Positions 10,487 through 30,431 of a stretch of DNA of 32,000 nt are shown here, in pieces; position 1 is the stretch's first letter, and each line of letters starts with the position of its first letter. The position numbers and the translations under genes were made by a program. The stretch is from Tannockella kyphosi (lineage in GTDB: Bacteria; Bacillota_I; Bacilli_A; Erysipelotrichales; Coprobacillaceae). The notes under the pieces were generated by a model. That model had not been told where the DNA came from, made no database searches, and saw only the letters and a list, made by a program, of their open reading frames with translations. The stretch covers positions 1,230,001 to 1,262,000 of the forward strand of contig NZ_CP088239.1 of the NCBI RefSeq assembly GCF_021054785.1. The letters run 5' to 3'.

Positions 10487-11176
10487 TTATTCTATTTGCA
10501 TAAATTCAATAATAAGTTGTACTGTTTGATCTTGTTGTTCTTTTGAAGAAATTGTTGCTTGTCCATCTCCATCATTTTCACCATAGTTACCAAATTGAGC
10601 ATGGTTTCCACCTTCAATAATATACACATTTGTTGAATAATCCACACTATCTCCTACTCTTAAATCATTAGAACCAACAATCGTAATTGTTTTTTCTAAA
10701 TCATATCCCATCGATTCATAAATACCTACAAATACAACTCCTTCTATTTTCTCTTCATTGTTAACAGCATACATGTCGGCAGCTACTCCACCTAATGAAT
10801 GTCCTCCAATATACCAAGAAGTAATCTCTTCATACTCTTCTATGAAATCATCCGCTTTATTAATGCCAAAACAAGCCATATTAAAAGGCATATCTACTAG
10901 GAATACATTAACCCCTTGCTCTTGTAATTTTTGACATAATGGCGCATATGCTAGATAATCTACTCTTCCACCCGGATAGAAGACAAAGCCTATCTCACTA
11001 TCCCCTTCAAAATAAACATAATCATCGATCAAATATACATCCTCTTGTTCTAATATTGTATAGTATTCTTCATCTAATGTACGGTAATCACTTGCATATA
11101 TACACAATCCTCCAAAACCAATAACTAATAAAGTTATCATTAGGATTAATATTTTGACTCTTTTTTTCATTATCAT
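10487..11176 (-). CDS. secreted or membrane-anchored alpha/beta hydrolase
   Basis: N-terminal hydrophobic anchor. Nucleophile elbow GGHSLGG. 229 aa. Confidence 0.7.
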   Translation of the reverse strand: MIMKKRVKILILMITLLVIGFGGLCIYASDYRTLDEEYYTILEQEDVYLIDDYVYFEGDSEIGFVFYPGGRVDYLAYAPLCQKLQEQGVNVFLVDMPFNMACFGINKADDFIEEYEEITSWYIGGHSLGGVAADMYAVNNEEKIEGVVFVGIYESMGYDLEKTITIVGSNDLRVGDSVDYSTNVYIIEGGNHAQFGNYGENDGDGQATISSKEQQDQTVQLIIEFMQIE

Positions 11177-11419
11177 CTTCCCCCATCTCTTCTATCATAG
11201 TAATAAATATTTAAAATAGTAGTCTTCTTTTAAATATTATAACGTATTTACATTACAATACAACTTGATAATAAAAAATAGCATAACAACAATCATATTG
11301 ATAGTTATTATACTATTTAATATATTTGGCAAAAACAAGTTTAAATAAATTCATTGCCGTTTTAATATATTTTCTGTACATTAATTTCCATTGTAATTTG
11401 TTTTGTTAGAAGTTTGTAC

Positions 11420-12766
11420 TTACTTAATTATTAGCCAGCTACCACTTCTAGAAGATCCAACACGTTCAATCAGCCCTTTTTCTTTGAGGGATTGAAACAA
11501 ACGTTTTACTTGACGTGTACTTAGACCTAACTCTTCTCCACAATTTATTTGCTTTACATTAGCATTTTCACGAATGTAGCGTAACACCTGTTCTTCACAT
11601 TCATTTAATGTTATACCTTCATTGGTGTCATGATTGGTGACATTGGTGTCATGATTGGTGACATTTTCATCTTCAGGTAGAGATTGCATCTGTTCAAATG
11701 GTAACACTACACGGATAAAATGGTCTGAAATTTCAAAAATGCTCTTATCGTATGCTTGCAAAATACGTGTCATACCTGAACCAAGTTGTTCTACCAAGCC
11801 AACATCACGGAACACACGCATCAATTCACGGTTACGTGGCATGCTACTGCAACTAAAGAAATCTCCTTCGCTTTGTCCCATCATCAACCCACCATATGAA
11901 GTCATCACCAGTCTGTCACTAAAAATTTCAAATACTGGTGGAAATTCACGACTATAATCATTATGTACAATCGCATTAATAATTGCTTCTCGCATTGCCA
12001 ATGGATCTACCAAATTTTTATCAATTCGTTGCGTGCTAGTTATTTTTGTTCGGGTGATGTTTTCAATCTTCAGCTTGTCCAACACCGCATTGGTCGCTTT
12101 TATTAACGAGCAATAACCATATTCCTCATTCTCAATTAAATCCATCTTATCTCTTCCGGCATACTTAGCAACTTTGATAGAATTCCCATTCTCATCTGCA
12201 AGTAAGTACGCTAAATAGTTGTATTTATCCTCAGGTGTAAGAAGCTCCAAACTGCTTTCAAAGCGTTCATTTAATGTCAGTTTCTTTTCTTCATAATAGA
12301 TTTTAAGTTGAGCAAAACTTAAATCTTGACGTGGGGCAATGACACTGCGTAAGGTTGTATGGATACGTTTAGCATAAAATTCATCTATCATATTTTGTGC
12401 CATCGGTAACGAAGATGAACCAATACGCATATAACAACCACTCGGTGACATTCCTTTATTTTTAATGTAATAAGGCTTTTCCGTGCCACTACATATCACG
12501 ACCTTGACCACCACTACATTTTCAACCATTTCTGTGCGAATTTCAAACAATCCAAGTGTTACTGGTAAGATATTATTTTTAATGCGATCTGAAATTTTAA
12601 GTTGCACGTCATCAACATCTATACGGCCCACTGGGTGTCCATCATTATCTAATCCAATATAAAGCGCACCTCCCTCACGATTATTAAAAAAAGCAACCAC
12701 TTCCTTTTCCAATTTATCATTCAGTATAGATTTAAACTCTATCTTATAATTTTCTTGCAATCTCAA
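11420..12766 (-). CDS. AlbA_2/Schlafen-type DNA-binding domain + HATPase_c_4-like domain + C-terminal wHTH protein (often annotated as a RecG-like putative transcriptional regulator)
   Basis: 448 aa. N-terminus EFKS...VVAFFNNREGGALYIGLDNDG (AlbA_2). Centre AIINAIVHNDYS...RNRELMRVFRDVGLVEQLGSGMTRI (HATPase_c_4-like). C-terminus LSTRQVKRLFQSLKEKGLIERVGSSRSGSWLI (wHTH). The gene is visibly richer in G+C than its neighbours. Confidence 0.75.
   Translation of the reverse strand: MRLQENYKIEFKSILNDKLEKEVVAFFNNREGGALYIGLDNDGHPVGRIDVDDVQLKISDRIKNNILPVTLGLFEIRTEMVENVVVVKVVICSGTEKPYYIKNKGMSPSGCYMRIGSSSLPMAQNMIDEFYAKRIHTTLRSVIAPRQDLSFAQLKIYYEEKKLTLNERFESSLELLTPEDKYNYLAYLLADENGNSIKVAKYAGRDKMDLIENEEYGYCSLIKATNAVLDKLKIENITRTKITSTQRIDKNLVDPLAMREAIINAIVHNDYSREFPPVFEIFSDRLVMTSYGGLMMGQSEGDFFSCSSMPRNRELMRVFRDVGLVEQLGSGMTRILQAYDKSIFEISDHFIRVVLPFEQMQSLPEDENVTNHDTNVTNHDTNEGITLNECEEQVLRYIRENANVKQINCGEELGLSTRQVKRLFQSLKEKGLIERVGSSRSGSWLIIK
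11620..11665 (-). repeat. in-frame tandem repeat, 21 nt x 2.2, encoding NVTNHDT NVTNHDT in the linker before the wHTH
   Basis: cattggtgtcatgattggtga occurs at 11620-11640 and again at 11641-11661, followed by a partial copy. Confidence 0.9.
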
Positions 12767-13563: not shown

Positions 13564-15153
13564 TTAGTTCTTTATAATATTATTTAATTCATCAAACAGT
13601 GCTCTTCTAGAAGCATATTCTGATTGTTTAAGATCTTCGATAATTTCATTTACTAATACTATTCCATTATTTAATTTACTAATAGGTTTTATATAACGAC
13701 ATGCTACTTGATAATTCTTCCTACTCTTTTCTAATTTTAAGATATCATAGAACTTATTAATAAATTTAGTATATAATTCTTCTCTATAATCTTCTTCTAA
13801 AAAAGTAACATTTCGCATTAAGATATCCTCTTTTTTCATTTCAATCGCTAATTCATATAATGACTTCGGATCTTTTGTATATAGATATAGTATTTCTAAG
13901 GTGTAAATATTATATGATTTATCTTTAATAACTTTAATAGTTTCATCAAAGTTATTAAGTAACTCTAATTCTTGTAATATAGCACTACTATTAGTATATA
14001 AGAATTCATATAGTAATGCATCTTTATAGATATCTTTATTAAGTGTTAATGTATATAGTTTCATAAATATATCACTAATTGTTTGATTACGGTATAGATG
14101 TTTTTTATTTAGTAATTCTTTTGTTAACGTGTATAATTCTTCTTTATCTTCAAAATTATTTATTACATACTCTACATATTTAAGATACTTAGAGTATTTA
14201 ATTAGATTGCGTACAATCTCTTCTTTAGAATAACTATATAGTTTTGTTAGTGTTATTAAAACATTTGATTTAGGAGCAGTAGTCCTAATATTATATTGCT
14301 TTAATAACTTAAAGTATTCTTCTAATACTATTCTAAATTCTAATACATTATTATTTGTTTGTTTTTGATAAAAGTCACTAATCCAATTATAATTGTCATA
14401 CACTGTTAATTCTTTAGTAAGAAGAAGATTATCTATTTGTTTTTGAAATAGATTATTCTTATGATAATTAGAAGTTATTTGTTGCTTTTGTTGTTTGGTT
14501 AGTAACTCTTCTTGATAATATTTATAATCATAATTATAATCACTTTGCAATTCCCTTACCCTTTTAGAAATATCATCTACAATACCTTGCAGTGGATTAT
14601 TTACTAAATAATTTAAACAAGGTCCCTGTAGATACTCATAATAAGTATCTCTTGGAGTTTTTAGTAATTCTTTCTTTAATATCTCTTGTGCTTGTTTTAA
14701 CGATAAGCTCCCTACATATTCATATAATACTTCCTCAAAATAGTCTGGTTTAGTAAAACTATCCCTATAATTATATTCGTCATATTCATCATATTCATCA
14801 TATTCATCATCATATTCATCATATTCATCATCATATTCATCATATTCATCATCATATTCATGGGAATAGTCTGAAAACAACCGTTCTTCATAATCGTGTG
14901 TTTCTTCAGGATGAACACTAAAATAAAGAGCAATCATATGCTTACATATACTATGTCCATTTGCATAGGGACATGTACATGTGGATTTTCTAAGATGATT
15001 GGTATGTATTGTTACATCATATACTTGATTTCCACTACCTGCTACTAAGGCATGATATTCATAGATAGATTTTTCTTCCACTTCTCCCACCAATCCATCT
15101 ATATAGTACTCATATCCCCTACTTACTATTGCTGGTCCAGCTTGTTCTAACAT
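13564..15153 (-). CDS. SWIM zinc-finger protein with acidic D/E/Y repeat and long alpha-helical C-terminal region
   Basis: 529 aa. The start is preceded by AGGAGGA. N-terminus GYEYYIDGLV...VYDVTIH...CTCPYANGHSICKH is a CxCx8CxH SWIM finger. It is followed by a 26-residue tract of only D, E and Y (DDEYDEYDDEYDEYDDEYDEYDEYDEY), then about 380 aa of K/E/L/Y-rich helical sequence ending ...YQVACRYIKPI...EYASRRALFDELN. Confidence 0.8.
   Translation of the reverse strand: MLEQAGPAIVSRGYEYYIDGLVGEVEEKSIYEYHALVAGSGNQVYDVTIHTNHLRKSTCTCPYANGHSICKHMIALYFSVHPEETHDYEERLFSDYSHEYDDEYDEYDDEYDEYDDEYDEYDEYDEYNYRDSFTKPDYFEEVLYEYVGSLSLKQAQEILKKELLKTPRDTYYEYLQGPCLNYLVNNPLQGIVDDISKRVRELQSDYNYDYKYYQEELLTKQQKQQITSNYHKNNLFQKQIDNLLLTKELTVYDNYNWISDFYQKQTNNNVLEFRIVLEEYFKLLKQYNIRTTAPKSNVLITLTKLYSYSKEEIVRNLIKYSKYLKYVEYVINNFEDKEELYTLTKELLNKKHLYRNQTISDIFMKLYTLTLNKDIYKDALLYEFLYTNSSAILQELELLNNFDETIKVIKDKSYNIYTLEILYLYTKDPKSLYELAIEMKKEDILMRNVTFLEEDYREELYTKFINKFYDILKLEKSRKNYQVACRYIKPISKLNNGIVLVNEIIEDLKQSEYASRRALFDELNNIIKN
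14778..14870 (-). repeat. tandem catattcat(cat) repeats encoding the D/E/Y acidic tract
   Basis: Directly visible run of tcatattcatcatattcatca... units in multiples of 3 nt. Confidence 0.9.
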
Positions 15154-15162
15154 GATTTCCTC

Positions 15163-15921
15163 CTATTCCCACTCTACTTCTTCTGGGTATTCTAATTTTG
15201 GATCAGATAATTCATAGATGCTTGTTTTATATTTTTCAGCCCAATATTCAAAATTCTCTTCCATATCATAATAGATACCAGTCTTGCTAACTATTCTTTT
15301 TGTGATAATACGTAGTTTATCTTTTCTTTTAGAAACATTAGTTTTATAGTACTCAATATTACATTTATCAACAAATTGAGTTGTATATAATGTATAGTCT
15401 TCAGGATTTTTATCATAAGATCTTCTAATCTTCATAACATCTTCTTCCCCTATTACCTCTCCTATTGCTTGCCATACACTTGCAAATAAGAAATTCAGGT
15501 TTGCTACATCTAGGTAGTATTGAGTGAGTGGCACAGCTGGTAAAACATCCATTGCCTTGCCATAGTTTTCTTTGCAAAATCTATATAGTGTAGGAACACT
15601 ACAAGCTAGGAATATAATTTCCGGGAAAAATACTTCAACACTAAAATATGCATTCTTATCACTACATGTAATATCATGAAAATCTTGTAATTCTGGATAC
15701 ATATTATTATCCACAAATAAAACATTACGATCCCCTTGATACGCATGTCTTATATCATAACATAATCCTAGTAATCTCATCATCACCCCATAAGTTCTTA
15801 GATCATCTTCCGCATCATATCCTGAAAGATTATGAATACTTCTAGTTAGTTGATAAAAATCTCCATAGTCTCCTTGAATAGTTACTCCTAATAAGTTTTT
15901 TGTTGGTATTACTGATATCAT
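15163..15921 (-). CDS. hypothetical protein, first gene of the SWIM operon; no family recognised
   Basis: 252 aa ORF with GGAGAAT upstream. Its stop is 9 nt before the SWIM gene start. No motif I can assign. Confidence 0.6.
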   Translation of the reverse strand: MISVIPTKNLLGVTIQGDYGDFYQLTRSIHNLSGYDAEDDLRTYGVMMRLLGLCYDIRHAYQGDRNVLFVDNNMYPELQDFHDITCSDKNAYFSVEVFFPEIIFLACSVPTLYRFCKENYGKAMDVLPAVPLTQYYLDVANLNFLFASVWQAIGEVIGEEDVMKIRRSYDKNPEDYTLYTTQFVDKCNIEYYKTNVSKRKDKLRIITKRIVSKTGIYYDMEENFEYWAEKYKTSIYELSDPKLEYPEEVEWE

Positions 15922-17902: not shown

Positions 17903-19351
17903 ATGAATGATGATACTCTCACTATGTCCATTTGCCGTGATGACATCTTACAGTTATTTAATTTAGAAGCAAAACGTATTGATACCTTTGAAATACGTCC
18001 TACTTTGTTTAATGAATTAGAAATTCATGTAAAACTAAGCCGATGTTATCAAACATGTCCATGTTGTCATAATAAGACCAATACTGTAAAAGACTATGTT
18101 CCTAAAAAGATTACACATTCCTTACTTCATTCTAAACCAACTTATATCTTCTATAACGCTAGAAGATATCGTTGTAAAATATGTGGAAAATCATTCTATG
18201 AAGAAAATCCATTCACTCATGAAAAAGCAAGAATTTCTGCCTTGACCGTATATAATGTCATTGAGGAATTCAAAAGTCCTAGAGCTACTTTTAGTGATGT
18301 TGCTGCACGTTATCATATTTCTACTACCTCCGTAATCAATCTGTTTGATCAACATGTTTCTGTATCTAGAAAAACTCTTCCTAGATACTTGTGCCTGGAC
18401 GAAAATTATGCGTTCAAATATGACAAGAGTAACTACTGTTTTGTCCTCGTTGATTTACTAACCAAGGATGTTGTTGATATATTACCTTCACGTAAAAAGT
18501 TAGATCTATTACGTTACTTTGAAGCTATCCCTTTAGAGGAAAGAGAAGGTGTTGAACTCGTTGTTTCTGACTGTTGGAAAACATATCGTGATGTAGCTAA
18601 AAAGATGTTACCCAATAGTAAGTTTGTAGTAGATAAGTATCATATTCTAGCTGATCTTACAAAACGTGTAGACCGTATACGTATTGATGTCATGAATGAA
18701 AACTATGTAAAGATTAGTGCAAAAGAATTAGATGCACTACCTCCTGATAAGAAAGCAGAAATCATTCAAAAGAAACATACATACTATGTATTAAAGAAAT
18801 TCAATTGGTTAATCCATACCAATCATAAGAAAAAGAAAAAAAGAGAAAATGGAAAGATAATTGAATACTATGCTTTAGACCCTAATAATGAAAAGAAATA
18901 TAACTATGCATTAAGTAAGTTCCTTAACTTTTATGATTTATATGACCTTGTCTATCATTGTGATCCTAGATTAACAGAAGCAGTAGAACTAAAGGAATCT
19001 CTGGTTCGATTTTATAAGCAATCAACCTATAAGAATGCAAAACATAATCTAGATGAAGTGATTAAAGAATTTGAAGAAAGTACCCTCCCGGACATGAGAA
19101 AATATGCTTCTACATTAAAAGAATGGAAGAAAGGAATCATCCATTCATTTATACCTATAGATTCCCCTGTTCCTAGAACTGCAACCAATGCGATTATAGA
19201 AAATAGAAATAAACTAATCAAAGATATTAAACGTGGTGGTAACGGATTCCGTTGTTGGCCAAGATTCCGTAATCGTATACTCTTTGCCCTAAATAGCGAA
19301 AGCACCATGCATCTCAATCCAATAAAAAAAGAGAAACAACAAGATACCTAG
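17903..19351 (+). CDS. ISL3-family transposase
   Basis: 482 aa. N-terminal zinc finger CPCCHNKT...CKICGKSF (zf-ISL3). DDE core LCLDENYAF...VVSDCWKTYRDVA...VDKYHI. C-terminal TNAIIENRNKLIKDIKRGGNGFRCWPRFRNRILF matches the ISL3 signature TN-x-(I/V)EG-x-N-x-(I/L)K-x-(I/L)KR-x-x-(Y/F)G(F/Y)R-x-(F/W). Confidence 0.9.
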   Translation: MNDDTLTMSICRDDILQLFNLEAKRIDTFEIRPTLFNELEIHVKLSRCYQTCPCCHNKTNTVKDYVPKKITHSLLHSKPTYIFYNARRYRCKICGKSFYEENPFTHEKARISALTVYNVIEEFKSPRATFSDVAARYHISTTSVINLFDQHVSVSRKTLPRYLCLDENYAFKYDKSNYCFVLVDLLTKDVVDILPSRKKLDLLRYFEAIPLEEREGVELVVSDCWKTYRDVAKKMLPNSKFVVDKYHILADLTKRVDRIRIDVMNENYVKISAKELDALPPDKKAEIIQKKHTYYVLKKFNWLIHTNHKKKKKRENGKIIEYYALDPNNEKKYNYALSKFLNFYDLYDLVYHCDPRLTEAVELKESLVRFYKQSTYKNAKHNLDEVIKEFEESTLPDMRKYASTLKEWKKGIIHSFIPIDSPVPRTATNAIIENRNKLIKDIKRGGNGFRCWPRFRNRILFALNSESTMHLNPIKKEKQQDT

Positions 19352-19642: not shown

Positions 19643-21270
19643 CTACTTTCTATAATTAATATAAATAATTGGTTTTAATCCAGCCAACCTAACTTCTTTT
19701 TTCCAACCATCAATTTTATTTTTTAATAAAAGCATATCAAGTTCATTGATATTTGGAACTCCATCTTCAAGTATAGGTAATTCACCTCTATCTAATATAA
19801 TCCATATACAAACTGTGTCTATTTCAGGCATATGTGTAAGTGTTTTATGTTGATACATCTTTAAAGAAGATAATGATTGATCCACAACATAACACAAATG
19901 AGCCGATGCCTTTCCTATTTTAACTGCAAACATCGTTTTGTCTTTATACAAATCCATAAGTTCTATACTAGATGTTCCATATCGTTGCTCAATTCTATCA
20001 TAATTCTTGAACCCATTGTCACGTTCTCGTATTAAATTGAATGTTCGCTCAGCATAAAATTTACGCATCAGCTTTTGTTTTGCTTTGCTTTTAGACAAAC
20101 CAATATAATCAGCAGAATCTTTATACTCTAAATATCTTGAATTAATATAATCATCATGTATGGAAGATGAAAAATCAAACTCTGGATTATAAATTACATC
20201 AATCTCAGCTAATGATGATTTAAGATATTCTAAGTAATCATCATTGAAATGATACCATTTACCCCTCGATAAAACACAACGCTCATCCTCGTCCATATAA
20301 TCAATTATGTTAATTAGCTTATCTGTTTTTACAGAGTTGCTCATATAATAACTAATAATATTAACTTTTTCAAAAGCACTTGCTAGGTCCAACTCACAAT
20401 TTTGAGCAAATTTTTTGAAGTCATCAAAAGTAATATTGTCTACACTCATCTCGTTTTGACCTCGCTTTAGAGTAAATTTGTAATCTGTATTATTAAATAT
20501 CTCCGTTGTTCCGATTATATCAAATTCTGAAAAAGCTACATTTAACTCGTCTTCAGTTGCGCATTTAATTAATTTAGAATATAACAAATCTATATATTCT
20601 TTATCTGTCACTTTGCAAAAAACTGGTATTTTATAAATATCAGCTTTGTTTATAATAATATTTTCAACAAATGATATGGTATCAACTATATTATCTAATT
20701 TATCTTCTTTCAGATTAAATTTAATAGAATGTCCAAGTTCTATATTAGGATCAAACAAAGCAAATTTTTTAGGAATATCTAATTTACCTTTTATTTTAGA
20801 AAACGCTTCTCCACTATTAAATTCTAATTCTGAATAATCAATATATGTGTTTACTGTTTTATTTCTCTTAGATGTAGGCGCTATTAGCGTGTTGTTTTAA
20901 TTTCTTTAAACTTATGTTTTCTAGCAAAACCAAAAGCAAAATCTGTATCACAGTATTTGTCTACTGTAAAAAATGAAAATCCAAATGTACAGGCATATAT
21001 GACATCTTTACTTTGTAACACTAGTACACTTTTAGGATTAGAACGATTAGTGTAATCTTCTTCACCAAAAGCATTTAACAACCATTGCCATTCCACTAAA
21101 TTGTCTTTTTGTTCAAAACTAATATATAACGAAAGAATATATGTTACACTTCCTGTCCCTATATTTCTTGAAATCGTCAGTTCATCTGATGGTGCATATT
21201 TGCTTTCCAATTCTTCTAAAAAGTCTTCCATTTTCAATTTATCAATTTTATATAAATTAAGTTGTCCCAT
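19643..21270 (-). pseudogene. frameshifted TIGR04141/DUF6119-like gene (sporadically distributed family), split into 128 aa and about 413 aa frames
   Basis: ORF 20884-21270 (MGQLNLYKI...VIYACTFGFSFFTVDKYCDTDFAFGFARK...) looks like the N-terminus of the family. The frame of ORF 19643-20758 is actually open up to 20896, so it overlaps the end of the first ORF in another frame. One indel near the A4 run at 20895-20898 would fuse them into about 540 aa. The C-terminal block ELMDLYKDKTMFAVKIGKASAHLCYVVDQSLSSL resembles the conserved core of that family as I remember it. Confidence 0.55.
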
Positions 21271-21353
21271 ATAACCTCCTGTAAAATTTATTAAACTTTA
21301 AAGATCACCCCTGTCACGTTATCTGACTTAGAGCTATTTCTCTTCCACAAAAC

Positions 21354-21381
21354 AAAACACAAACAGTTTTGTTTGTGTTTT
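21354..21381 (-). terminator. rho-independent terminator of the Fic/type I R-M operon
   Basis: Perfect 11 bp stem AAAACACAAAC (21354-21364) / GTTTGTGTTTT (21371-21381), 30 nt downstream of the hsdR stop. A T-rich tail follows on the minus strand. Confidence 0.75.
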
Positions 21382-21410: not shown

Positions 21411-24400
21411 TTAAGCTGCTACATTCGCATTAATACTATTAATTACATTCCTTATTCCCATCCAAATTTGCTGATCAGTAAAAACTTCAACAATACTTCC
21501 ACGATCTGTAAATGGAGATTCTTGTAGTACTGATAAGTCCTTCAACATACCATTATGAACGATATATTCTATGATTTGATTCACAAAATAGATTTGTCTA
21601 GCATCAAGATTTGTATTGTCCAAAAAATCCCCAAAAGCTTCTTTTGCACTATTCATGTCTAATCCCACTATTTCACGAACAAATTCCCCTAGTGGCTTTT
21701 CTCCATATTCAGCTATGTAATCATCTTTTGATCCAACTTCATTCCAAAGTATTGTTTCTAGTTCGTTAACATCCTTTTTTGTAAGAGATTGATTTGTTTT
21801 CAATTTAGCTATTGCATCATTTGTCTCGTTATTTCTAATGTAATATTCAGCTTTTGCACGATAGTTTTGCATTTCACCATATTCTATCTCTGATTCTCTA
21901 ACTACCATTGTTAATATATCATCTGTAAAATTAGTTTGATATTTAATTGACGTTTTAGGAATGTATTTCATAAGGTAACGTAGATTCTCACGTATATGCT
22001 CAAATTCATTTATCCCTGCATCTTCAATATAGTCTGTATTGAGAATCTTATCAATTAATTCTGATTGTGCTTTTATTTCTGGTATATTTGCAACACTTGC
22101 AACAGATTTCACTTTCTTATACAAATCACTTCGAGCCTTCCCGTGTGTTTTTCCTACTAGATAGGCTAATTCTAATCCATATACTAATGCATCAAATCGC
22201 AGTGCAGATGCCTCATCTATATCTGGAATAATTAATGGTGCTATATGTTCTTTAATAAGTAGTGTATCTTCATAAGTTAAAGCATTATACATATTTTCTA
22301 AACTATATTTTTTAACATATCGTAAATGTTGTTTTACAATAAAATTGGTAACATCAAGTTCTTTTACTTTATTTAAAATTTCATCTACTAATGATTTTCT
22401 AAATGCAGAAAGTTCTTCTGTTTGATATGCGATATCTTGTAATTTAAAAGCAATCTGAGTTTTTAAATCTAGTATTGCTCCCTGCAGTGCCAACATATTT
22501 GCGGTAGCTCTACCTTTATTCATTCTAAAAAATTCAAAATTTCCACAAAAATCAAAGATATAAAATTTCTCTTTATCCTCTCCATCTAATAGTGTTGGAC
22601 AAAGTCTAGTCCCCCTACCAATCATCTGCCAAAATTTTGCCTTACTCATTACTTTCTTGAAAAACACTAGGTTCAATACTTCAGGAATATCAATCCCAGT
22701 ATCAAGCATATCAACAGATATTGCTATTTGTGGTAACTTATTTGGTTCTGAGAATTCATCAATAGCAGACTGTGCGTAGGTCATGTAATTATCAATTACT
22801 TTCGCATAGCCGTTTAAATATGGATATTCTTTATTAAATACCTCATATATCTTTTCTGCATGATCATGATTTTTAGCAAAAATTATACTTTTACCAATTT
22901 TCTTTCCATATTCTATGTGTATGCCCTCACTCATTAATACATGGAGCACTTTTTTTATAGTATCTTCATTAAAAATCCACTTATTTAATGCTGAAGAATT
23001 TATTTTTTCAGGAATATTTCCTTGTTCATCTTCAAAAGTGTTTTCATATTCTTCTTTTTCTTCTTCTGTTAAGTCATCATAATTTATACCTTGTTCTAAA
23101 AATTTCAAGGTCGTCTCTACGGATAAAAAATCCACTAAGTATCCATCTTTAACAGCTTGTGCTAGTTCATATCCGTAAGTAGGATTCCCATTTTCAAGTT
23201 CAAATATTTCATATGTGTTTTTATCTATTTCATCCTTTGGTGTAGCGGTTAATCCTACTAAAGGTGCATCAAAATAGGTAAAAATATCTTTATACTTGTT
23301 GTAAATAGACCTATGAGCCTCATCACAGATAATCAAATCAAAATGTCCACTTGTAAATAGTTTTCCTTCTTCATCAAATGTATTATCTATCACGTTTATC
23401 ATAGTTTGATATGTAGAGAAAATGCAATTTGCATTGTAACCTCCCTTATCTTCGCATAAATTAGAAATAGATAAATTCGGTAATAGATTCACAAAACTTC
23501 TTTTTGCTTGTGTAACAAGAGAATTTCTATCTGCCAAGAAAAGAATATTCTTCACCCATCCATAATTCAGTAGAACATCAGACAAAGCAATGACTGTCCT
23601 TGTTTTCCCACTCCCTGTTGCCATGACAAGTAGTGATTTTCTTTTGTTTTTTTCATCGAAATGATGACAAACAGCCTTAATAGCACCAACTTGGTAGTAT
23701 CTTCCTGCAATATTTCTATTTACATCAATATAATAAAGTGGGCTCTTCATCCTTCTAAGATTAAATAATTTTTCTAAATCTCTCTTAGAATAAATATTTG
23801 CACAGTTTCTTTCTGGATACTGACCATCTATAATCTTTGTGTCAAATCCATTCGTTAAAAATATTACTGGTCTTCTACCATATTCTTTTTCTATGCAGTC
23901 AGCGTATAGTTTTGCTTGTTGTCTCCCTTTTACAACATCAACACATGTACGTTTAGCTTCTATTACTGCAAGAGGAATCTGCTTATCATCATAAAGTACG
24001 TAATCACAAAATCCCTCTTCTTTTTTATTAGGCATACCTTCTACACGAACTTCGTTTAACCAGTTTTTACCTTCTACCCAGTTTGCATCACGAAGTGTGC
24101 TATCTATATAGATCTTTCGTGTTTGGTATTCAGATAAATCAAGAGGTTTTGGAATATATGATTTGCTTTGTTCTTCTCGTCTTTGCGTTAGTTCTTCTTT
24201 TAATTTCTTGTTTTCTTCAATTAAACTTTCAAAATCGATATCGTGGCAAGCTTCTTTGATGGGAACCACAATTTCTTTTTCAAGCAAACTTGTATCATAG
24301 CTATTTTCAACATAACCTGTCCCATAGCAGTAAGCAACAAAATCTAAAAAGAGAAATAGATTTTCAAGGCATAACATAACTTCTTCTTTTTTCACTTTTT

Positions 24401-24698
24401 TAGTTGTATGAACAGCATTATTTCCAATTTTCCTTACAAGATGCATTCTAGTTAAAAGCTCATTATCCACAATCTCTCTAAAATCCTCATTTGACATAAG
24501 GGAAATAAGATTATTATCATGAGGCATGACAAGACTACTATCAACGGAGTACATCCATTTAATAGCAAATTCCATAGCTTTACGGCAATTTATAGCAGAA
24601 CTCTCTATATCAATGTTAATAAACTTTTCAGCATTAACAGCAACCGATGAGAATGTATTAAATTGTTCCTCTTTTAATAAAAAATCAAAATTAGTCAT
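21411..24698 (-). CDS. hsdR: type I restriction endonuclease subunit R with N-terminal DUF4145 (HEPN-like) domain
   Basis: The start is placed at MTNFDFLL (ATG 24698-24696, preceded by GAGGGGTGGA). The N-terminal domain has RKIGNNAVH. PD-(D/E)xK: CDYVLYDD...AVIEAKR. Helicase motifs VMATGSGKT, ICDEAHRS, GLTATP, QMIGRGTR. The tail is EcoEI_R_C-like. Confidence 0.9.
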   Translation of the reverse strand: MTNFDFLLKEEQFNTFSSVAVNAEKFINIDIESSAINCRKAMEFAIKWMYSVDSSLVMPHDNNLISLMSNEDFREIVDNELLTRMHLVRKIGNNAVHTTKKVKKEEVMLCLENLFLFLDFVAYCYGTGYVENSYDTSLLEKEIVVPIKEACHDIDFESLIEENKKLKEELTQRREEQSKSYIPKPLDLSEYQTRKIYIDSTLRDANWVEGKNWLNEVRVEGMPNKKEEGFCDYVLYDDKQIPLAVIEAKRTCVDVVKGRQQAKLYADCIEKEYGRRPVIFLTNGFDTKIIDGQYPERNCANIYSKRDLEKLFNLRRMKSPLYYIDVNRNIAGRYYQVGAIKAVCHHFDEKNKRKSLLVMATGSGKTRTVIALSDVLLNYGWVKNILFLADRNSLVTQAKRSFVNLLPNLSISNLCEDKGGYNANCIFSTYQTMINVIDNTFDEEGKLFTSGHFDLIICDEAHRSIYNKYKDIFTYFDAPLVGLTATPKDEIDKNTYEIFELENGNPTYGYELAQAVKDGYLVDFLSVETTLKFLEQGINYDDLTEEEKEEYENTFEDEQGNIPEKINSSALNKWIFNEDTIKKVLHVLMSEGIHIEYGKKIGKSIIFAKNHDHAEKIYEVFNKEYPYLNGYAKVIDNYMTYAQSAIDEFSEPNKLPQIAISVDMLDTGIDIPEVLNLVFFKKVMSKAKFWQMIGRGTRLCPTLLDGEDKEKFYIFDFCGNFEFFRMNKGRATANMLALQGAILDLKTQIAFKLQDIAYQTEELSAFRKSLVDEILNKVKELDVTNFIVKQHLRYVKKYSLENMYNALTYEDTLLIKEHIAPLIIPDIDEASALRFDALVYGLELAYLVGKTHGKARSDLYKKVKSVASVANIPEIKAQSELIDKILNTDYIEDAGINEFEHIRENLRYLMKYIPKTSIKYQTNFTDDILTMVVRESEIEYGEMQNYRAKAEYYIRNNETNDAIAKLKTNQSLTKKDVNELETILWNEVGSKDDYIAEYGEKPLGEFVREIVGLDMNSAKEAFGDFLDNTNLDARQIYFVNQIIEYIVHNGMLKDLSVLQESPFTDRGSIVEVFTDQQIWMGIRNVINSINANVAA

Positions 24699-24715: not shown

Positions 24716-25462
24716 CTATCTTAATAATCTCTCTGCTTTTTCCATCCCTAAAGGAGAAATGTAGCACTTATCTAAAGAGTATTCAATTAGTCTATTCTTG
24801 TGTAAATCCCAAAGTTGTTTTTTAAATGTTGTTGAATTACTATATTCAATTGATGATTGCAATTCCTCTGCAGTTTGTGAGTCTTTGATATATAAAAGAC
24901 ATAAAACTTTATCTTTGGTGCTCATCTTTGCATCTAAAATTCTTAAGGTACTTCCTGTATCCCAAACAATGGAAGTTTCCTTACACATGATGCCATTTAT
25001 TATTTCTTCTGTCTCTTCAAACGTTTTAGTTGAAACTAATCTATAAAACTCTGCCAAAACCCATTTAGCATTGTATAGTAGCAAAGATGCATCCATCTTA
25101 TTAGGGTCTATATGATTTTTATGAATCATTCCTCTCTTGTTTCTAATACAATACATGCTATAAAGAACTCTTGGTATTATTATTCTATATTCTTCTTGTT
25201 TTGATGGTACATTTTCATAGATAATTAAAGCTTTTTCATTAAAAATCGATAATTTATCTGTTAATGATGTAAATTCACCGTGCAACTGATATTCTATCAA
25301 GCGTCTTGAAGTTTCAATAAACTGCCCCATTTCGTTGCCTGTATATTGCCAATTGCACTTTTTAAATTCAATTAAAGCATTTTCATAACTTGTTAACAAG
25401 TACAGTACTAACTCTTCTGGATAAACCGTTTTCAGCACTTGTTCAACGCTATTTATTTGCAC
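24716..25462 (-). CDS. uncharacterised protein embedded in the R-M operon: HEPN-like helical domain (Rx6H) plus C-terminal winged helix
   Basis: 248 aa. It overlaps the upstream ORF by 14 nt and ends 17 nt before hsdR. The motif YCIRNKRGMIHKNHIDP fits the HEPN Rx4-6H pattern inside a predicted all-helical region. The C-terminal KDKVLCLLYIKDSQTAEELQSSIEYSNSTTFKKQLWDLHKNRLIEY...ISPLGMEKAERLL looks like a MarR-type wHTH. Confidence 0.5.
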   Translation of the reverse strand: MQINSVEQVLKTVYPEELVLYLLTSYENALIEFKKCNWQYTGNEMGQFIETSRRLIEYQLHGEFTSLTDKLSIFNEKALIIYENVPSKQEEYRIIIPRVLYSMYCIRNKRGMIHKNHIDPNKMDASLLLYNAKWVLAEFYRLVSTKTFEETEEIINGIMCKETSIVWDTGSTLRILDAKMSTKDKVLCLLYIKDSQTAEELQSSIEYSNSTTFKKQLWDLHKNRLIEYSLDKCYISPLGMEKAERLLR

Positions 25463-26018
25463 TTAGCATTTCCTCTAACAAATTGACAGCCGCTTCCTCA
25501 CCAGGTTGAGTTAACTCTATTGTCCATTTTCTTCCCTGTCCTTTTTTAATTATGTTAGTTTTCTCTTTATTGAAAATAGCTGCAAAATTGGAAGAATCAT
25601 AACAATTATGTTTTTCACACAAAGAGATAATCTCCTTCCCTTCGATTTTTATTTTTCTTATATGTAGCACAATCAACGCAATATTTTTAATCTTTGTGGC
25701 ATCATTATTTCCTGGTATTTTTTTCAGTATAGATATACTACCATCTTCACTATCAATGTGATATATCCCTCCTTCTATATATTTATCACTCATGTTTAAT
25801 ACTGGTGTGATTTTTTGCTCTATAGCTGAGTTTTCACAGTCAGAATTCATCTTTATTTGATTTTCATGTGGTTGAGTCAGCTGCACAATACTACTGTTTT
25901 TCTCAACAAATGAAAATACATCACCCATGTTTTTCTCAACAAAAATTTCTGAGCCTTGTATACTAAAACTACCTTGTGATAAATTAATTGTAATACTTGC
26001 ATTTTTAATTTCTTCCAT
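25449..26018 (-). CDS. uncharacterised small protein embedded in the R-M operon
   Basis: 189 aa. It starts 15 nt after the hsdS stop. No recognisable catalytic motif. The C-terminal part (EIISLCEKHNCYDSSNFAAIFNKEKTNIIKKGQGRKWTIELTQPGEEAAVNLL) has a wHTH-like pattern. Confidence 0.5.
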   Translation of the reverse strand: MEEIKNASITINLSQGSFSIQGSEIFVEKNMGDVFSFVEKNSSIVQLTQPHENQIKMNSDCENSAIEQKITPVLNMSDKYIEGGIYHIDSEDGSISILKKIPGNNDATKIKNIALIVLHIRKIKIEGKEIISLCEKHNCYDSSNFAAIFNKEKTNIIKKGQGRKWTIELTQPGEEAAVNLLEEMLSANK

Positions 26019-26033
26019 GTTTAATTTTCCTTT

Positions 26034-27131
26034 CTATTCAAAATAATATTGCATACGTTCTTTTTTTAGCATTTCTAAGTTTTCAAGACTTTTTGACACC
26101 TCTTCTTTTAATTCCACAGTCTTTGCCACATACGTGGTAAATAGGTTTTGAAGTTTAAGTGGTGGCACAATAACTTCCAGTTCCTTCAATATTTCTAGAT
26201 TTATATTTTTTTGTGCTGACTCTGGTGCTTTAGTTTCTAATATTTCTTGAAAAAAAGAAAACCAATAATGAATAAATATTTCACCAGTTTTTTCGCCCGC
26301 TTCAAACCCCACAATACTATCTGGAAAACAAGCATCAAATTTTATAATTGCTGTTTTCGCAATGTTCGCAGCTACCGTTATGCATAATGTACCTTCATTC
26401 CACATTTTACTTTGCTTTACCCCTAATTCAGAATAAGTTTTCGTATATCGACTAACATACAATTTAGCATTAGCTACTTCCCCTGTTTGTATTAATGGAT
26501 AAGCACCGTTTAGTAATTGTGGATCATTTCGTGGTCGCTGCTTTGATACACCTCTATTCAATTCTCCTAAATCACCTAAATTATTAATTTCCCATCTCTT
26601 AGGATTCATTACAGGATCTCCAAACATCTCGATAAATCGAGATTTTACTAATACATCTAATTTTTCTAACTGCTCTTTTCGCTTTTCAATTAGCCCCGTA
26701 ATCTTATCAAGTTCATCTGCAATTTGCTTTTGAACTTTTATCGGTGGTAGCCATACATTTTCATTTCTATAATCCTTAAAATATATATGTGGTATTGTCG
26801 CTCCCGAAAAATATTTAGATAAATTCATTTTAAGTATGGCATAAAACAAATATCGAATATCTATATTATCATTAGGAAAAATATATTGCATTGTTCCTAT
26901 AACAGACGATTTTTCAGGCAATATCATTGTACGACCAACCCCTGCGCCATCTTTCACTATTGCTATGTAAGGTTTGCTTTGCTTGTAAAATTCTACTGTT
27001 TTAATAAGTCCGCCCGCACCATAAATCGGATATTCACCATTGCTATTTTCCAAATCTTTCTTTGCAATATTAGAACCTCCTTTAGTACAAACATCTCCTA
27101 ACTTCACCATCTGCCATTTTTCACTACTCAT
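26034..27131 (-). CDS. hsdS: type I R-M specificity subunit S (two target-recognition domains)
   Basis: 365 aa. It overlaps the hsdM stop by 8 nt. Two variable halves are separated by the conserved helices LEKLDVLVKSRFIEMFGDP and LENLEMLKKERMQYYF. Confidence 0.85.
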   Translation of the reverse strand: MSSEKWQMVKLGDVCTKGGSNIAKKDLENSNGEYPIYGAGGLIKTVEFYKQSKPYIAIVKDGAGVGRTMILPEKSSVIGTMQYIFPNDNIDIRYLFYAILKMNLSKYFSGATIPHIYFKDYRNENVWLPPIKVQKQIADELDKITGLIEKRKEQLEKLDVLVKSRFIEMFGDPVMNPKRWEINNLGDLGELNRGVSKQRPRNDPQLLNGAYPLIQTGEVANAKLYVSRYTKTYSELGVKQSKMWNEGTLCITVAANIAKTAIIKFDACFPDSIVGFEAGEKTGEIFIHYWFSFFQEILETKAPESAQKNINLEILKELEVIVPPLKLQNLFTTYVAKTVELKEEVSKSLENLEMLKKERMQYYFE

Positions 27132-28623
27132 AAAGTCCCTCCAGTTCTGAAAGTCCTTTTAAAATCTCTTCTTCCAAAACTCGGATATCTGCTAGTATTT
27201 CTTTAGTTGGTGGATACTCCACTGGTATGTAATCCACTTTTTTATATTTGTTAATAGATAAATCCCAATCGTTTTCTACGATTTCATCTTTTGGAACAAA
27301 GAATGATTTTTCTGTACGTTTTCTATCTGCTTCTTTATCAAGATTCTTGAATCGTTCTATAATATCTGGTATATCATTTTCATCTATAACTGCTCGCTTA
27401 TCATCCAAAGATAAACCATCTGCTGTCATATCATAGAACCATACATTATCTGTACCACCATGACCTGTCTTAGTAAAAATCAAGATACCTGTTGATACTC
27501 CTGCATAAGGCTTAAATACGCCACTTGGCATTGAGATAACAGCTTCTAATCTATTGGTTTCTATAATTTCTTTTCTTATAGATTTATGAGCTTTTGATGA
27601 ACCAAATAAAACACCATCTGGTACGATAACAGCACATCTACCTCCAACTTTTAACATGCGAAGCATTAAAGCAAGAAATAAAAGTTCTGTTTTCTTTGTT
27701 TTACAAACTTTTAATAAATCAGTAGAAACAGTATCTGCATCAAGACTTCCTTTAAAAGGAGGAGTTGCTAGAATCAAAGAATATTTTTCTTTGTCTGGAT
27801 TTTGATCAGATAAACTATCTCTATATTCAATAAATGGATTATCTACACCGTGAGTCATCATATTCATAGCACCAATACGTAGCATTGTTCTATCCATGTC
27901 AAATCCTGTAAACATTTTATTCATATAATGCTCTTTATTTGTTTTATCGAAAAATACATCTTCTTTTCTGTTTTCTTTTAAATATTCACCACTAGCAACT
28001 AAAAAACCACTTGTCCCACAAGATGGGTCACAGATAGTATCTGTTGGTTTAGGATCCATTAATTCTACCATCATTTTAATAATATGACGTGGTGTTCTAA
28101 ACTGTCCATTAAGTCCTGCACTAGCGATTTTAGAAAGTAAATACTCATACACATCGCCACGAATATCACTATCTTGAATACGTTCCATTTGGGTATATAT
28201 TTCATCTAAATTTGTTACAATCTTAGATAACAATAATGGGGTTGGTATTTTAAAGATAGCATCATCCATATATTTTGAATAGGTACTTCCTTTCTCTCCA
28301 TGAAGATTTTTTATAAATGGAAATACCCATTCTTGCATAGTACTATACATTTGTCCTGCTGGGAAATCATGGAATACTGACCATTTTAGATTTTCTCCAT
28401 CAATAGTACGTTCACCAACTTGAACTTCTTTTGCAAATATACTTTCAAAAGAAAGTCCTAGCATTGCACTTTCTTTTGCTTTTATATTATCCGTTTTATC
28501 AAGATCATGTATAAACATCAGATAAGTAATTTGCTCAATAACATCGAGAGGATTTACCAATCCCCCCGCAGCAAAGACATTCCATAATCCATCTATTTTA
28601 TTCTTTAATTCTCCTGTAATCAT
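27124..28623 (-). CDS. hsdM: type I R-M N6-adenine DNA methyltransferase subunit M (motif IV reads TPPF)
   Basis: 499 aa. HsdM N-terminal helical domain. Motif I ICDPSCGTSGFLV. Motif IV region LILATPPFKGS. Downstream LLFLALMLRMLKVGGRCAVIVPDGVLF. Confidence 0.9.
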   Translation of the reverse strand: MITGELKNKIDGLWNVFAAGGLVNPLDVIEQITYLMFIHDLDKTDNIKAKESAMLGLSFESIFAKEVQVGERTIDGENLKWSVFHDFPAGQMYSTMQEWVFPFIKNLHGEKGSTYSKYMDDAIFKIPTPLLLSKIVTNLDEIYTQMERIQDSDIRGDVYEYLLSKIASAGLNGQFRTPRHIIKMMVELMDPKPTDTICDPSCGTSGFLVASGEYLKENRKEDVFFDKTNKEHYMNKMFTGFDMDRTMLRIGAMNMMTHGVDNPFIEYRDSLSDQNPDKEKYSLILATPPFKGSLDADTVSTDLLKVCKTKKTELLFLALMLRMLKVGGRCAVIVPDGVLFGSSKAHKSIRKEIIETNRLEAVISMPSGVFKPYAGVSTGILIFTKTGHGGTDNVWFYDMTADGLSLDDKRAVIDENDIPDIIERFKNLDKEADRKRTEKSFFVPKDEIVENDWDLSINKYKKVDYIPVEYPPTKEILADIRVLEEEILKGLSELEGLYE

Positions 28624-28624
28624 A

Positions 28625-29686
28625 TTAATCTCCTAACTCTCTATTCCATATATATTTTGTGTAACGCCCGCCACTCATTTTGATAATTCTATTTTGCTTT
28701 ACAAGGTCATTAAGGGCTCTTTGTATCGTTGTATCACTAATATCCGGGCACTTTTCCATAAGTTCTCTTTTTGTTACTTGTCCAAGTGTTTGCTTAATAG
28801 TTTCTGCAATTCTTTCAGGTTTCGAATAACCTTTTGTAATCATTACTTCAACTCGATTTTCAAATTCTCTATAAGCAGCTATAATAACACCTAACATATA
28901 TCGAACAAATGGAGCATAATCATTCTCGTCTTCATGCCAACCATAAGAACTTACCTGTAATGTTTCATAGTAAGTTTCTTTGCTTTGCTCAATAATCTTT
29001 TCTATACTAATATATTTACCTACAATGCAGTTTGTACGATAAAGAAGTAATAAAGTCATAAGCCTGCTCATTCTACCATTCCCATCATTAAACGGATGGA
29101 TACAAAGAAAATCTAGTACAAACATTGGTATAAGTAAAAGGGCATTCGCTTTTCCTGTTCCCATAATCTGATTGTATGCATTGCAAAGTTCTTCTACTGA
29201 CTCTGCTGTTTCCCAAGAATGAACAGGTTGAAAACGTACTTTTTGTGTTCCATCAGTCATTTTTTCTGCAATTACATTATCTGAATTTTTATACTTCCCA
29301 CCAAAATTCAAACCACTATATTTATACAAATCTCTATGCAGCTGTAAAATCATACTTGGTTTTATTGGAATAAAATCATGACTTTCGTGTATTGTAGCAA
29401 GAACATCACGATATCCTGCAATCTCTTGTTCATCACGTGATTGCGGTGTTGTTTTATCCATAACCAGAAGTTTCACTCTATCATCGGAAGTATAGATTCC
29501 TTCTATCTTATTCGACGCCTCTGTACTTTGTATCTTAGCAATTTCAAGTAAAGTAGTTAAAGTGTCTGCTTTTTGTTCAACAAACAGTTTTTGCTCCCCT
29601 TTAAATTCATGAATTTGTGTAAGTAACGAAACTATTTCAGGAGTGATTAACTGTTCCCATTTATTTTCATAATTATAGTCTTTCAT
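28625..29686 (-). CDS. Fic-family protein (AMPylase-type) with N-terminal inhibitory helix motif and C-terminal wHTH
   Basis: Active-site motif HPFNDGNGRMSRL (HxFx[D/E]GNGRxxR). The N-terminal SNKIEG matches the (S/T)xxxE(G/N) inhibitory motif. C-terminal wHTH (TKRELMEKCPDISDTTIQRALNDLVKQNRI). The stop is 1 nt before the hsdM start. Confidence 0.9.
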   Translation of the reverse strand: MKDYNYENKWEQLITPEIVSLLTQIHEFKGEQKLFVEQKADTLTTLLEIAKIQSTEASNKIEGIYTSDDRVKLLVMDKTTPQSRDEQEIAGYRDVLATIHESHDFIPIKPSMILQLHRDLYKYSGLNFGGKYKNSDNVIAEKMTDGTQKVRFQPVHSWETAESVEELCNAYNQIMGTGKANALLLIPMFVLDFLCIHPFNDGNGRMSRLMTLLLLYRTNCIVGKYISIEKIIEQSKETYYETLQVSSYGWHEDENDYAPFVRYMLGVIIAAYREFENRVEVMITKGYSKPERIAETIKQTLGQVTKRELMEKCPDISDTTIQRALNDLVKQNRIIKMSGGRYTKYIWNRELGD

Positions 29687-30008: not shown

Positions 30009-30431
30009 TATCTTTTTCAGGACGGTAATAATGATTATTTTTTTAATAGCATTAACTTTATAGCCTTCAAAACAGTTAATAAAGATGCCCTTGCTACAAA
30101 TAACTCTCCACAAATCAAATTCCTCCCTTCTAATGAAAACGACAATTATACCATGGCAGTTATGCAAATCAACGCAGAATTCTCCAGAATAAAAGAAGAT
30201 GAATTAAAAAAATCATCTTCCACAAAAATTACCAAAGAAATTACCAAAGAAATTACCAAAGAAATTAAAAAACACATGAAAAATAACCCTGAAATCACTG
30301 CGAAGGAATTAGCCATTCTTTGTGAAACTAATCAAGATACAATTCAGTATCGCATAAAAATTATGCGTACGAATAAGGAAATTAAGAGAGTCGGTTCCAC
30401 TAAATCCGGATATTGGGTAGTGTTAAAATAA
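30009..30431 (+). pseudogene. C-terminal fragment (end of HATPase_c_4-like domain plus wHTH) of a third AlbA_2-family gene; the longest ATG ORF is 30153-30431
   Basis: The frame is open from 30009. It ends AKELAILCETNQDTIQYRIKIMRTNKEIKRVGSTKSGYWVV, the same wHTH and STK-x-G-x-W ending as the two other copies. There is no AlbA_2 N-terminal domain upstream. Confidence 0.55.
30226..30267 (+). repeat. 12 nt tandem repeat x 3.5 (aaattaccaaag) encoding (K)ITKE-ITKE-ITKE in the pre-wHTH linker
   Basis: Copies at 30226-30237, 30238-30249 and 30250-30261, then a partial copy. Confidence 0.9.

Follow-up and report, generated by a model that had tools for sequence, protein, structure and literature searches.

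A predicted HEPN-type protein and its winged-helix partner encoded in the hsdS-hsdR slot of a type I restriction-modification operon of Tannockella kyphosi

Organization of the locus

In this study, two adjacent unnamed genes of Tannockella kyphosi, orf189 and orf248, were analyzed in a window of 32,000 nucleotides (nt), that is, the whole stretch covering positions 1,230,001-1,262,000 of the forward strand of contig NZ_CP088239.1 (assembly GCF_021054785.1). The two genes lie between hsdS and hsdR of a type I restriction-modification (R-M) operon, whose genes are arranged on the minus strand in the order Fic (SoFic-like)-hsdM-hsdS-orf189-orf248-hsdR (Table 1). The original prediction, made from this DNA alone, regarded the pair as a possible analogue of PrrC, able to sense when the type I enzyme is inhibited. 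The present analysis somewhat favors another explanation, namely that orf189 and orf248 form an autonomous module of a HEPN toxin and a winged-helix neutralizer, captured in an R-M hotspot, where it would serve as a second layer of defense.

The operon is tightly packed, and its genes either overlap or are separated by no more than 17 nt. The Fic stop codon and the hsdM start are separated by 1 nt, hsdM and hsdS overlap by 8 nt, orf189 follows hsdS after 15 nt, orf189 and orf248 share a 14-nt overlap with the sequence GTGCAAATAAATAG, and hsdR follows orf248 after a gap of 17 nt. The GTG start of orf248 is backed by alignment with its homologs. The true start of hsdR is the ATG at 24698, which is preceded by the ribosome-binding site (RBS) GAGGGGTGG; the GTG at 24767 given in the list of open reading frames (ORFs) is wrong. 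About 30 nt past the hsdR stop codon, a hairpin (ACACAAAC-N6-GTTTGTGT) is followed by a T-rich tail. This hairpin was missed by a consensus terminator scan because that scan requires G+C-rich stems and the stem here is GC-poor. Within the operon, the same scan gave a single terminator-like match on the minus strand (28568-28545), which is within chance (3 found, 2.5 expected). Upstream of Fic, there is a terminator-like hairpin, a promoter-like TATAAT, and an RBS. Given the packed junctions, the hairpin after hsdR, and the TATAAT and hairpin before Fic, the natural reading of the sequence is that orf189 and orf248 would be co-transcribed with the R-M genes. The packing, the terminator after hsdR, and the co-transcription of a pair occupying the slot of PrrC had all been proposed in the original prediction; re-reading of the junctions confirmed the first, and the other two agree with the hairpin, the junctions, and the gene order. 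The DUF4145 family, found at the N-terminus of HsdR, has been assigned to the HEPN superfamily (PMC3710099), and the Fic-hsdMSR operon would encode two HEPN-like domains, one in orf248 and one in HsdR.

Table 1. Features of the pair and of the surrounding operon, in window positions (aa, amino acids; AF2, AlphaFold2; wHTH, winged helix-turn-helix)
Feature	Position	Strand	Basis
orf189, partner protein, putative neutralizer/regulator	25449..26018	-	189 aa, ATG start
orf248, HEPN-like domain and winged helix, putative RNase effector	24716..25462	-	248 aa, GTG start
orf248 N-terminal all-alpha domain, proposed HEPN fold, aa 1-160	24983..25462	-	AF2 secondary structure
E50-T-S-R-R54, Ex3R motif in predicted helix 2 (38-61)	25301..25315	-	Alignment and AF2
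R107-N-K-R-G-M-I-H114, Rx6H motif, polar residue after R	25121..25144	-	Alignment and AF2
orf248 C-terminal winged helix, Csa3-type, aa 166-247	24722..24967	-	MarR-type Foldseek matches
Fic-domain protein, C-terminal wHTH, SoFic-like, first operon gene	28625..29686	-	Pfam Fic E 9e-15; PADLOC SoFic E 1.8e-37
hsdM, type I methyltransferase	27124..28623	-	N6_Mtase E 1e-61 and HsdM_N
hsdS, type I specificity subunit	26034..27131	-	Methylase_S E 2.6e-38
hsdR, type I restriction subunit, EcoEI/type IC-like C-terminus	21411..24698	-	ResIII, SWI2_SNF2, EcoEI_R_C, DUF4145
DUF4145 (HEPN-clan) domain, HsdR N-terminus, motif RKIGNNAVH	about 24360-24632	-	Pfam
AT-rich hairpin and T-tract, probable operon terminator	21345..21380	-	Read from sequence

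Predicted structure and conservation of orf248

Direct scans of Pfam, NCBIfam, PADLOC, and PHROGs gave no significant match for orf248 or orf189 as whole proteins, and PADLOC-DB v2 had no system-specific model that significantly matched orf189 or the HEPN-like domain of orf248. This is consistent with the earlier statement that neither protein belongs to a named family. In a collection clustered at 90%, 187 homologs of orf248 were found, all annotated as hypothetical; the sequences identical to orf248 and orf189 are those of Tannockella kyphosi. A profile search covering 1.8 billion cluster representatives recovered 1,091 relatives at 50% identity clustering with E<=1e-3, and 735 with E<=1e-10. 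Nearly all of the best-scoring 150 relatives are about 250 aa long with an identical end-to-end architecture; shorter entries look like fragments. A genome scan placed the family in Bacillota, Melainabacteria, Tenericutes, Burkholderiales, Flavobacteriia, Gammaproteobacteria, and Anaerolineae, and its spread is also given as Bacteroidota, Pseudomonadota, and, weakly, archaea.

The AF2 model of orf248, based on a 54-sequence alignment, has a confidence score (pLDDT) of 89. Residues 2-160 are all-helical and residues 166-247 form a winged helix, as anticipated from the sequence. The predicted helices span residues 16-34, 38-61, 90-109, and 122-143, with an insert (62-89) between helices 2 and 3. 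The motif IRNKRGMIH, pointed out in the original prediction as HEPN-type, runs from the end of helix 3 into the loop formed by residues 110-121. Among 117 aligned, diverse members of the family (22-53% identical to the window protein), R107 and H114 are each conserved in 115 members, R110 in 112, and N108 in 105 (serine in 11 others). Similar conservation was observed for E50 (115), D124 (116), and E138 (114), and R54 is kept in 93. Besides the Rx4-6H motif, HEPN domains typically carry an acidic residue in helix 2, usually within Ex3[KR], and an insert between helices 2 and 3 (PMC3710099). The Rx6H motif of orf248 agrees with these hallmarks in both position and conservation, E50 and R54 agree with the helix-2 signature, and the predicted insert would fit the third hallmark.

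Database signals for this domain are convergent but weak. Abi_C, the AbiJ HEPN family, was the most recurrent Pfam match (13 of the 117 members, E 0.011-0.2), always under the 24-bit cut-off. Its placement was obtained by inspecting chosen members, none among the first 10 picked and two in the second pick, and in these two it covers the motif helix (98-126 of P0231 and 90-129 of P0300, against Abi_C positions 35-76). Foldseek searches of PDB and BFVD used the whole orf248 model and were dominated by winged-helix matches; against PDB, the HEPN protein TT1696 (1ufb_A) was matched with a template-modeling score (TMt) of 0.61 over 133 columns and an E value of 0.25. In the proposed structural check, the predicted helices and the placement of the motif would fit a HEPN domain, whereas the match to TT1696 is not significant. 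A family-profile search found no PDB sequence match for the N-terminal domain. Through its motif hallmarks, orf248 is very probably a HEPN-type protein, as had been suggested. The idea that it is a detached copy of the HsdR HEPN domain was dropped after a negative hhalign comparison with a low-diversity DUF4145 template.

The PADLOC model CARF3--CARF_TM matched the C-terminal winged helix in 22 of the 117 members (best E 8e-7), the family profile matched the wHTH of Csa3 weakly in PDB sequences, and Foldseek returned MarR-type structures.

The partner protein orf189

A total of 101 orf189 homologs were found in the collection clustered at 90%, all of them unnamed hypothetical proteins. The AF2 model (pLDDT 81) comprises a beta-hairpin and helix (aa 6-40), a linker (46-71), and a winged helix (79-186). 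The linker is modeled as disordered (pLDDT below 50), and its sequence is hypervariable across the alignment. The winged helix, which bears out the wHTH-like C-terminus noticed earlier, resembles F-93, MarR, and PadR-type structures in Foldseek (TMt about 0.64, E 7e-3). PDB sequence searches with the orf189 and orf248 family profiles gave only weak wHTH matches or none, and hhalign detected no relationship between the winged helices of the two proteins. In 13 of 53 family members, the N-terminal segment of orf189 (aa 9-40; window positions 25899-25994, minus strand) weakly matched type I KH domains over their C-terminal half, with a best E value of 0.0018 and values of 0.4-0.7 in the two members where the match was placed. 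Homology with KH domains was rejected, as only the last beta-beta-alpha of the KH fold is covered and the similarity is a pattern resemblance.

Inheritance of the two genes as one unit

A survey was performed on 119 loci, drawn from the window, 17 species genomes, 80 metagenome contigs, and the places reached by exact look-ups. These loci (numbered with the prefix L) form 71 clusters at 90% orf248 identity. In all 63 evaluable clusters, the orf248 homolog is directly preceded by a partner gene of the same orientation. In 58 of these, the partner was detected by the orf189-family hidden Markov model; in the remaining 5, the gene in this position, likewise co-oriented, encodes 154-205 aa and keeps the hairpin-linker-winged-helix layout with a diverged sequence. 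In most of the contexts examined, the gene calls again show the 14-nt overlap. Across 54 clusters, the pairwise distances of orf189 and orf248 are correlated (r=0.77; none of 500 label permutations reached this value), and orf189 diverges faster, with a mean distance of 0.69 vs. 0.57 for orf248. As in type II toxin-antitoxin systems, therefore, two small, adjacent, co-oriented, and overlapping genes are inherited together. Antitoxins of this type combine a DNA-binding domain with a flexible neutralizing region and are autoregulated; the predicted winged helix and disordered linker of orf189 may correspond to these two parts, and palindromes occur in the AT-rich DNA upstream of standalone pairs. 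These palindromes overlap promoter-like -35/-10 hexamers (L018, 8360-8400; L033, 6787-6822; L002, 9398-9445; L003, 9395-9424); the winged-helix proteins may use them as operators, though in AT-rich DNA they may be due to chance.

Variants of the unit were also observed. In three loci of Flavobacteriia (L011, L012, and L013), a second orf189-like gene lies directly downstream of the orf248 homolog (about 10763-11292). Some Clostridia-type loci have two tandem orf189 paralogs upstream, forming a three-gene variant; L033, L034, and L070 are also listed as three-gene loci. Inactivated orf248 homologs were found in L057-L059 (10001-10750), L043, and L017 (8318-10417), through splitting by an internal stop or frameshift, truncation, or insertion of an IS66-like transposase gene. 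Such sporadic inactivation fits a costly toxin gene.

Genomic contexts of the pair

Linkage to type I R-M was scored as hsdS within 3 kb upstream and hsdR within 6 kb downstream of the pair, for which 33 clusters were fully evaluable. The hsdS-pair-hsdR arrangement was found in 11 of them (the window's own and 10 more), and 22 had no type I R-M gene in the scored positions. Of the 12 evaluable clusters whose orf248 is at least 59% identical to that of the window, 10 have the embedded form; the eleventh embedded cluster is L004, at 53%. Identities to the window proteins in the embedded group are 63-70% for Fic, 76-81% for HsdM, 68-71% for HsdR, 60-66% for orf248, and 48-58% for orf189. L021 and L061 also have the pair in this slot, in a type I system clearly distinct from that of the window (HsdM 56-57%, HsdR 36-41%, orf248 60-62% identity), and HsdR of L021 has no DUF4145. 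The pair of L010 is not enclosed by a type I operon but has a complete one on its own strand, about 1.7 kb upstream. In L026 (8017-12827), the slot contains a gene of 128 aa and the pair, then a further five small genes of 177, 123 (DUF6173), 207, 226, and 200 aa before hsdR, and it looks like a miniature cargo island within the R-M operon. A look-up of an HsdR N-terminal homolog, intended as an empty-slot control, led to a degraded hsdR in another island.

Essentially, embedding is a trait of a single clade of close relatives, in which the pair is inherited with the Fic-hsdMSR operon; the PrrC-like topology is a lineage-specific capture. Because the embedded operons look co-inherited as one composite, judging from the Fic, HsdM, and HsdR identities, the hsdS-pair-hsdR linkage may reflect descent rather than function. 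The neighborhood survey therefore upheld one of the two expected associations: orf189 and orf248 always co-occur, but most fully evaluable clusters lack the hsdS-hsdR placement, and those that have it are mostly close relatives.

Elsewhere, the pair is found in diverse surroundings. In Listeria monocytogenes, it stands alone between feoAB and a phosphoesterase gene; other standalone pairs follow an ABC transporter or metG. One pair lies directly after a type II R-M system with PIN and Mrr genes downstream, and another is in a tRNA-integrated island adjoining an FRG-domain gene. In L035 (1483-6593), the pair lies downstream of two genes, one for an MmeI-like type IIG enzyme and one for an AAA_13 protein of 734 aa, and this locus looks like a defense island of its own. 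AAA_13 is the ATPase class of PrrC and RloC. The pair also occurs near integrases, relaxases, and insertion sequence (IS) elements. A Fic-domain gene is located immediately downstream of the pair in L015 (11115-12002) and in L083, L086, and L087 (about 10930-11945). Since these loci have no flanking type I R-M, the link with Fic recurs independently of the R-M operon.

Comparison with known systems

The hsdS-hsdR slot is a documented landing site for accessory defense genes, including PrrC, DarTG2, and TgvAB. PrrC consists of one protein, whose N-terminal domain is an ABC-ATPase (AAA_13-like), and it is silenced by the R-M complex itself. Like PrrC of EcoprrI (the E. coli prr locus) and RloC, orf248 represents a HEPN-type RNase gene, here a predicted one, between hsdS and hsdR. 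Unlike PrrC, the pair has a dedicated partner gene as a candidate neutralizer, the HEPN domain of orf248 is N-terminal and fused to a wHTH, and no ATPase domain was found in either protein by the Pfam, NCBIfam, and PADLOC scans or in the AF2 models. The position between hsdS and hsdR is shared in the window, whereas linkage to type I R-M is not the rule for orf248 homologs, most of which are unlinked to it. Fic/Doc-type genes are often located near PrrC/RloC-type loci (PMC3710099).

The closest functional precedent, by analogy, may be the type IX retron Kva2, in which a winged-helix protein alone neutralizes a HEPN toxin (bioRxiv 10.64898/2026.07.14.738597). That protein has one or more N-terminal HEPN-binding domains and a C-terminal HTH, and the system causes abortive infection through cleavage of rRNA and tRNA (bioRxiv 10.64898/2026.07.14.738597). 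Both systems combine a HEPN-type protein with a winged-helix/HTH protein. However, the HEPN protein of Kva2 has no canonical Rx4-6H motif, while orf248 has Rx6H; the gene order is reversed in the pair, and orf248 itself carries a wHTH. No reverse transcriptase (RT) was present among the Pfam-annotated neighbors in any annotated context of the pair, no noncoding RNA was found near it with Rfam, and neither the PADLOC scan nor the PDB profile searches detected sequence homology with the Kva2 proteins.

AbiJ gives the closest sequence signal, through the sub-threshold Abi_C matches over the RNxxGxxH helix of the orf248 family. The HEPN domain of AbiJ differs in lying C-terminally, behind AbiJ-NTD domains, and AbiJ acts as a single gene. 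Solo AbiJ genes have been found in R-M operons (PMC3710099). HEPN-MNT and RnlAB/LsoAB are also two-gene modules of a HEPN RNase toxin and a cognate neutralizer, some of them abortive-infection systems; unlike their neutralizers, orf189 is not a nucleotidyltransferase, does not resemble RnlB or LsoB, and consists of a wHTH and a disordered linker. Csa3, a CRISPR-associated regulator with a CARF domain and a wHTH, shares with orf248 only the wHTH part; orf248 has no CARF domain, and an all-helical HEPN-like domain takes the sensor position.

Embedding of defense genes in type I R-M operons is a general phenomenon (bioRxiv 10.1101/2024.01.29.577857). DarTG2 is embedded in the type I R-M operon of enteropathogenic E. 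coli (PMC12255303), and TgvAB in that of Vibrio cholerae (PMC11411939). As in these cases and in the HEC systems (Hma), an independent two-gene system is placed between hsdS and hsdR and would be co-expressed with them. The protein families are different: DarTG2 acts by ADP-ribosylation, and TgvAB is a GmrSD-type nuclease.

Proposed function and alternative explanations

The candidate catalytic residues, the HEPN hallmarks, the constant pairing, the autonomy of the pair, and its defense and mobile contexts together make a toxin and its neutralizer the best-supported reading. From these data we infer RNase activity and toxicity for orf248, a neutralizing role for orf189, and a function in defense. 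In the proposed mechanism, R107, N108, and H114, with E50 and R54, would form a metal-independent RNase site in the HEPN-type domain of orf248; like the sites of other HEPN enzymes, it would probably lie where two subunits of a dimer meet. orf189, made just upstream and translationally coupled, would be produced in fixed stoichiometry with orf248. Its hairpin-helix and disordered linker may hold or occlude the RNase, and its winged helix may bind nucleic acid, so that orf189 would be a neutralizer and a probable autoregulator of the operon. Infection or another stress would remove or titrate orf189 and thereby free the RNase. In the window lineage, the cassette occupies the slot between hsdS and hsdR of a Fic-type I R-M operon and would therefore be expressed together with the R-M system as a second defense layer, without needing the R-M enzyme for its function.

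Several results weigh against this reading. No statistically significant sequence or structure match linked orf248 to any HEPN family: the best Abi_C E value (0.011) misses the Pfam cut-off, and the HEPN match in Foldseek has an E value of 0.25. An hhalign comparison of the orf248 N-terminal domain with the HsdR DUF4145 alignment, a template of low diversity, gave a probability of 0.2%. In PADLOC, the HEPN-like domain of orf248 has no match, only the winged helix matching the CRISPR-ancillary CARF3 model, and orf189 likewise has none. Searches of IMG/VR and of GenBank phages gave no member of the orf248 family, and among plasmids there was a single weak match, on a Natronomonas plasmid. Moreover, the winged helices modeled on both proteins would also fit a purely regulatory pair.

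Such a pair, in which two winged-helix DNA-binding proteins control the R-M or defense neighbors or their own island and the N-terminus of orf248 is a non-catalytic sensor or dimerization domain, is considered unlikely. It would account for the MarR, PadR, or Csa3-type winged helices at both C-termini, Csa3 being a transcription factor, and for the palindromes over promoter-like hexamers upstream of standalone pairs; RptR-like regulators are also known to accompany type I R-M islands (PMC12255303). However, near-invariant R, N, H, E, and D residues in the layout of a HEPN active site are unexpected for a mere dimerization domain. In addition, standalone pairs have no conserved neighboring target gene, the pair in the window has no promoter region of its own, and the palindromes lie in very AT-rich DNA, where they may arise by chance.

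Another, bolder scenario extends the toxin-neutralizer reading. It is improbable, though conceivable, that the pair represents an undescribed and widespread two-component RNase defense family, an RT-free counterpart of type IX retrons in which the winged-helix partner cages the HEPN-wHTH nuclease, and that in gut Firmicutes the family has been hard-wired into Fic-type I operons, where it also keeps watch on the R-M enzyme and is triggered once restriction has been disabled.

Coupling to the R-M enzyme in the manner of PrrC, as originally predicted, is not supported and seems very unlikely. Under this explanation, a latent RNase is held in check by HsdMSR, with orf189 as an adaptor, and is freed when a phage anti-restriction protein inhibits the enzyme. 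The occupied prrC slot and the tight co-transcription with hsdMSR suggest it, as do the 10 of 12 evaluable close-relative clusters that keep the hsdS-pair-hsdR order across two type I lineages (L021 and L061 being distinct), and DUF4145 of HsdR could in principle pair with another HEPN domain. On the other hand, the pair is autonomous in the 22 of 33 clusters without flanking type I R-M, and embedding is limited to one clade of operons co-inherited as a composite, where linkage may be a matter of descent. The obligate partner belongs to the module itself, and an ABC-ATPase sensor domain is lacking. Furthermore, HsdR of L021 has no DUF4145, and five genes separate the pair from hsdR in L026.

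There is similarly little to recommend a toxin-antitoxin pair that merely keeps the Fic-hsdMSR element by post-segregational killing, with no anti-phage role: the antitoxin-then-toxin order with an overlap, the proximity of integrases, relaxases, and IS elements, and the patchy distribution across phyla are compatible with it, but plasmids and phages almost never carry the pair, R-M systems are already self-stabilizing, defense genes rather than replication or transfer genes are enriched around the pair, and the mechanism overlaps that of the toxin-neutralizer module, from which it differs only in the selected benefit.

HEPN toxins in or around R-M operons and defense systems embedded in type I operons are already established, and on present evidence the pair introduces no new principle. 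What is new is a large family with no model in any library searched, which combines a canonical HEPN motif and a Csa3-type wHTH with an obligatory hairpin-linker-wHTH partner. If it is an active HEPN RNase system, a large unannotated family would be added to the abortive-infection and toxin-antitoxin defenses, and the pair would provide a simple, RT-free model of winged-helix control over a HEPN nuclease. The pair adds another occupant to the hsdS-hsdR slot and strengthens the view of type I R-M operons as landing pads for second-layer defenses. Natural variation in whether the pair is present, both in Listeria monocytogenes and in those gut Firmicutes that have it embedded, offers ready material for experiments.

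Other features of the window

With its Wadjet-like genes, Schlafen gene, SoFic, and R-M operon, the window looks like a defense island. At 760-3344 on the minus strand, genes with DUF2398 (368 aa) and DUF2397 (493 aa) have very strong Pfam matches; we take them to be JetB/JetA-type components of a Wadjet-like system, the remainder of which would run past the left edge of the window. Also on the minus strand are a Schlafen AlbA_2 and HATPase_c_4 gene (11420-12766), a DUF2130 gene (7321-8883), and a SWIM zinc-finger gene followed by a DUF6904 gene (13564-15921).

Directly after hsdR, a DUF6119/TIGR04141 ("sporadically distributed protein") gene (19643-21270, minus strand) is split into ORFs of 128 and 371 aa. 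The halves match consecutive parts of the model, and the gene is probably frameshifted or interrupted. It is adjoined by an intact ISL3-family transposase gene on the plus strand (17903-19351; DDE_Tnp_ISL3, zinc ribbon, and HTH). Upstream of the Fic operon and divergent from it, a 92-aa ORF (30153-30431, plus strand) with no Pfam match contains a KEITKEITKEI repeat.

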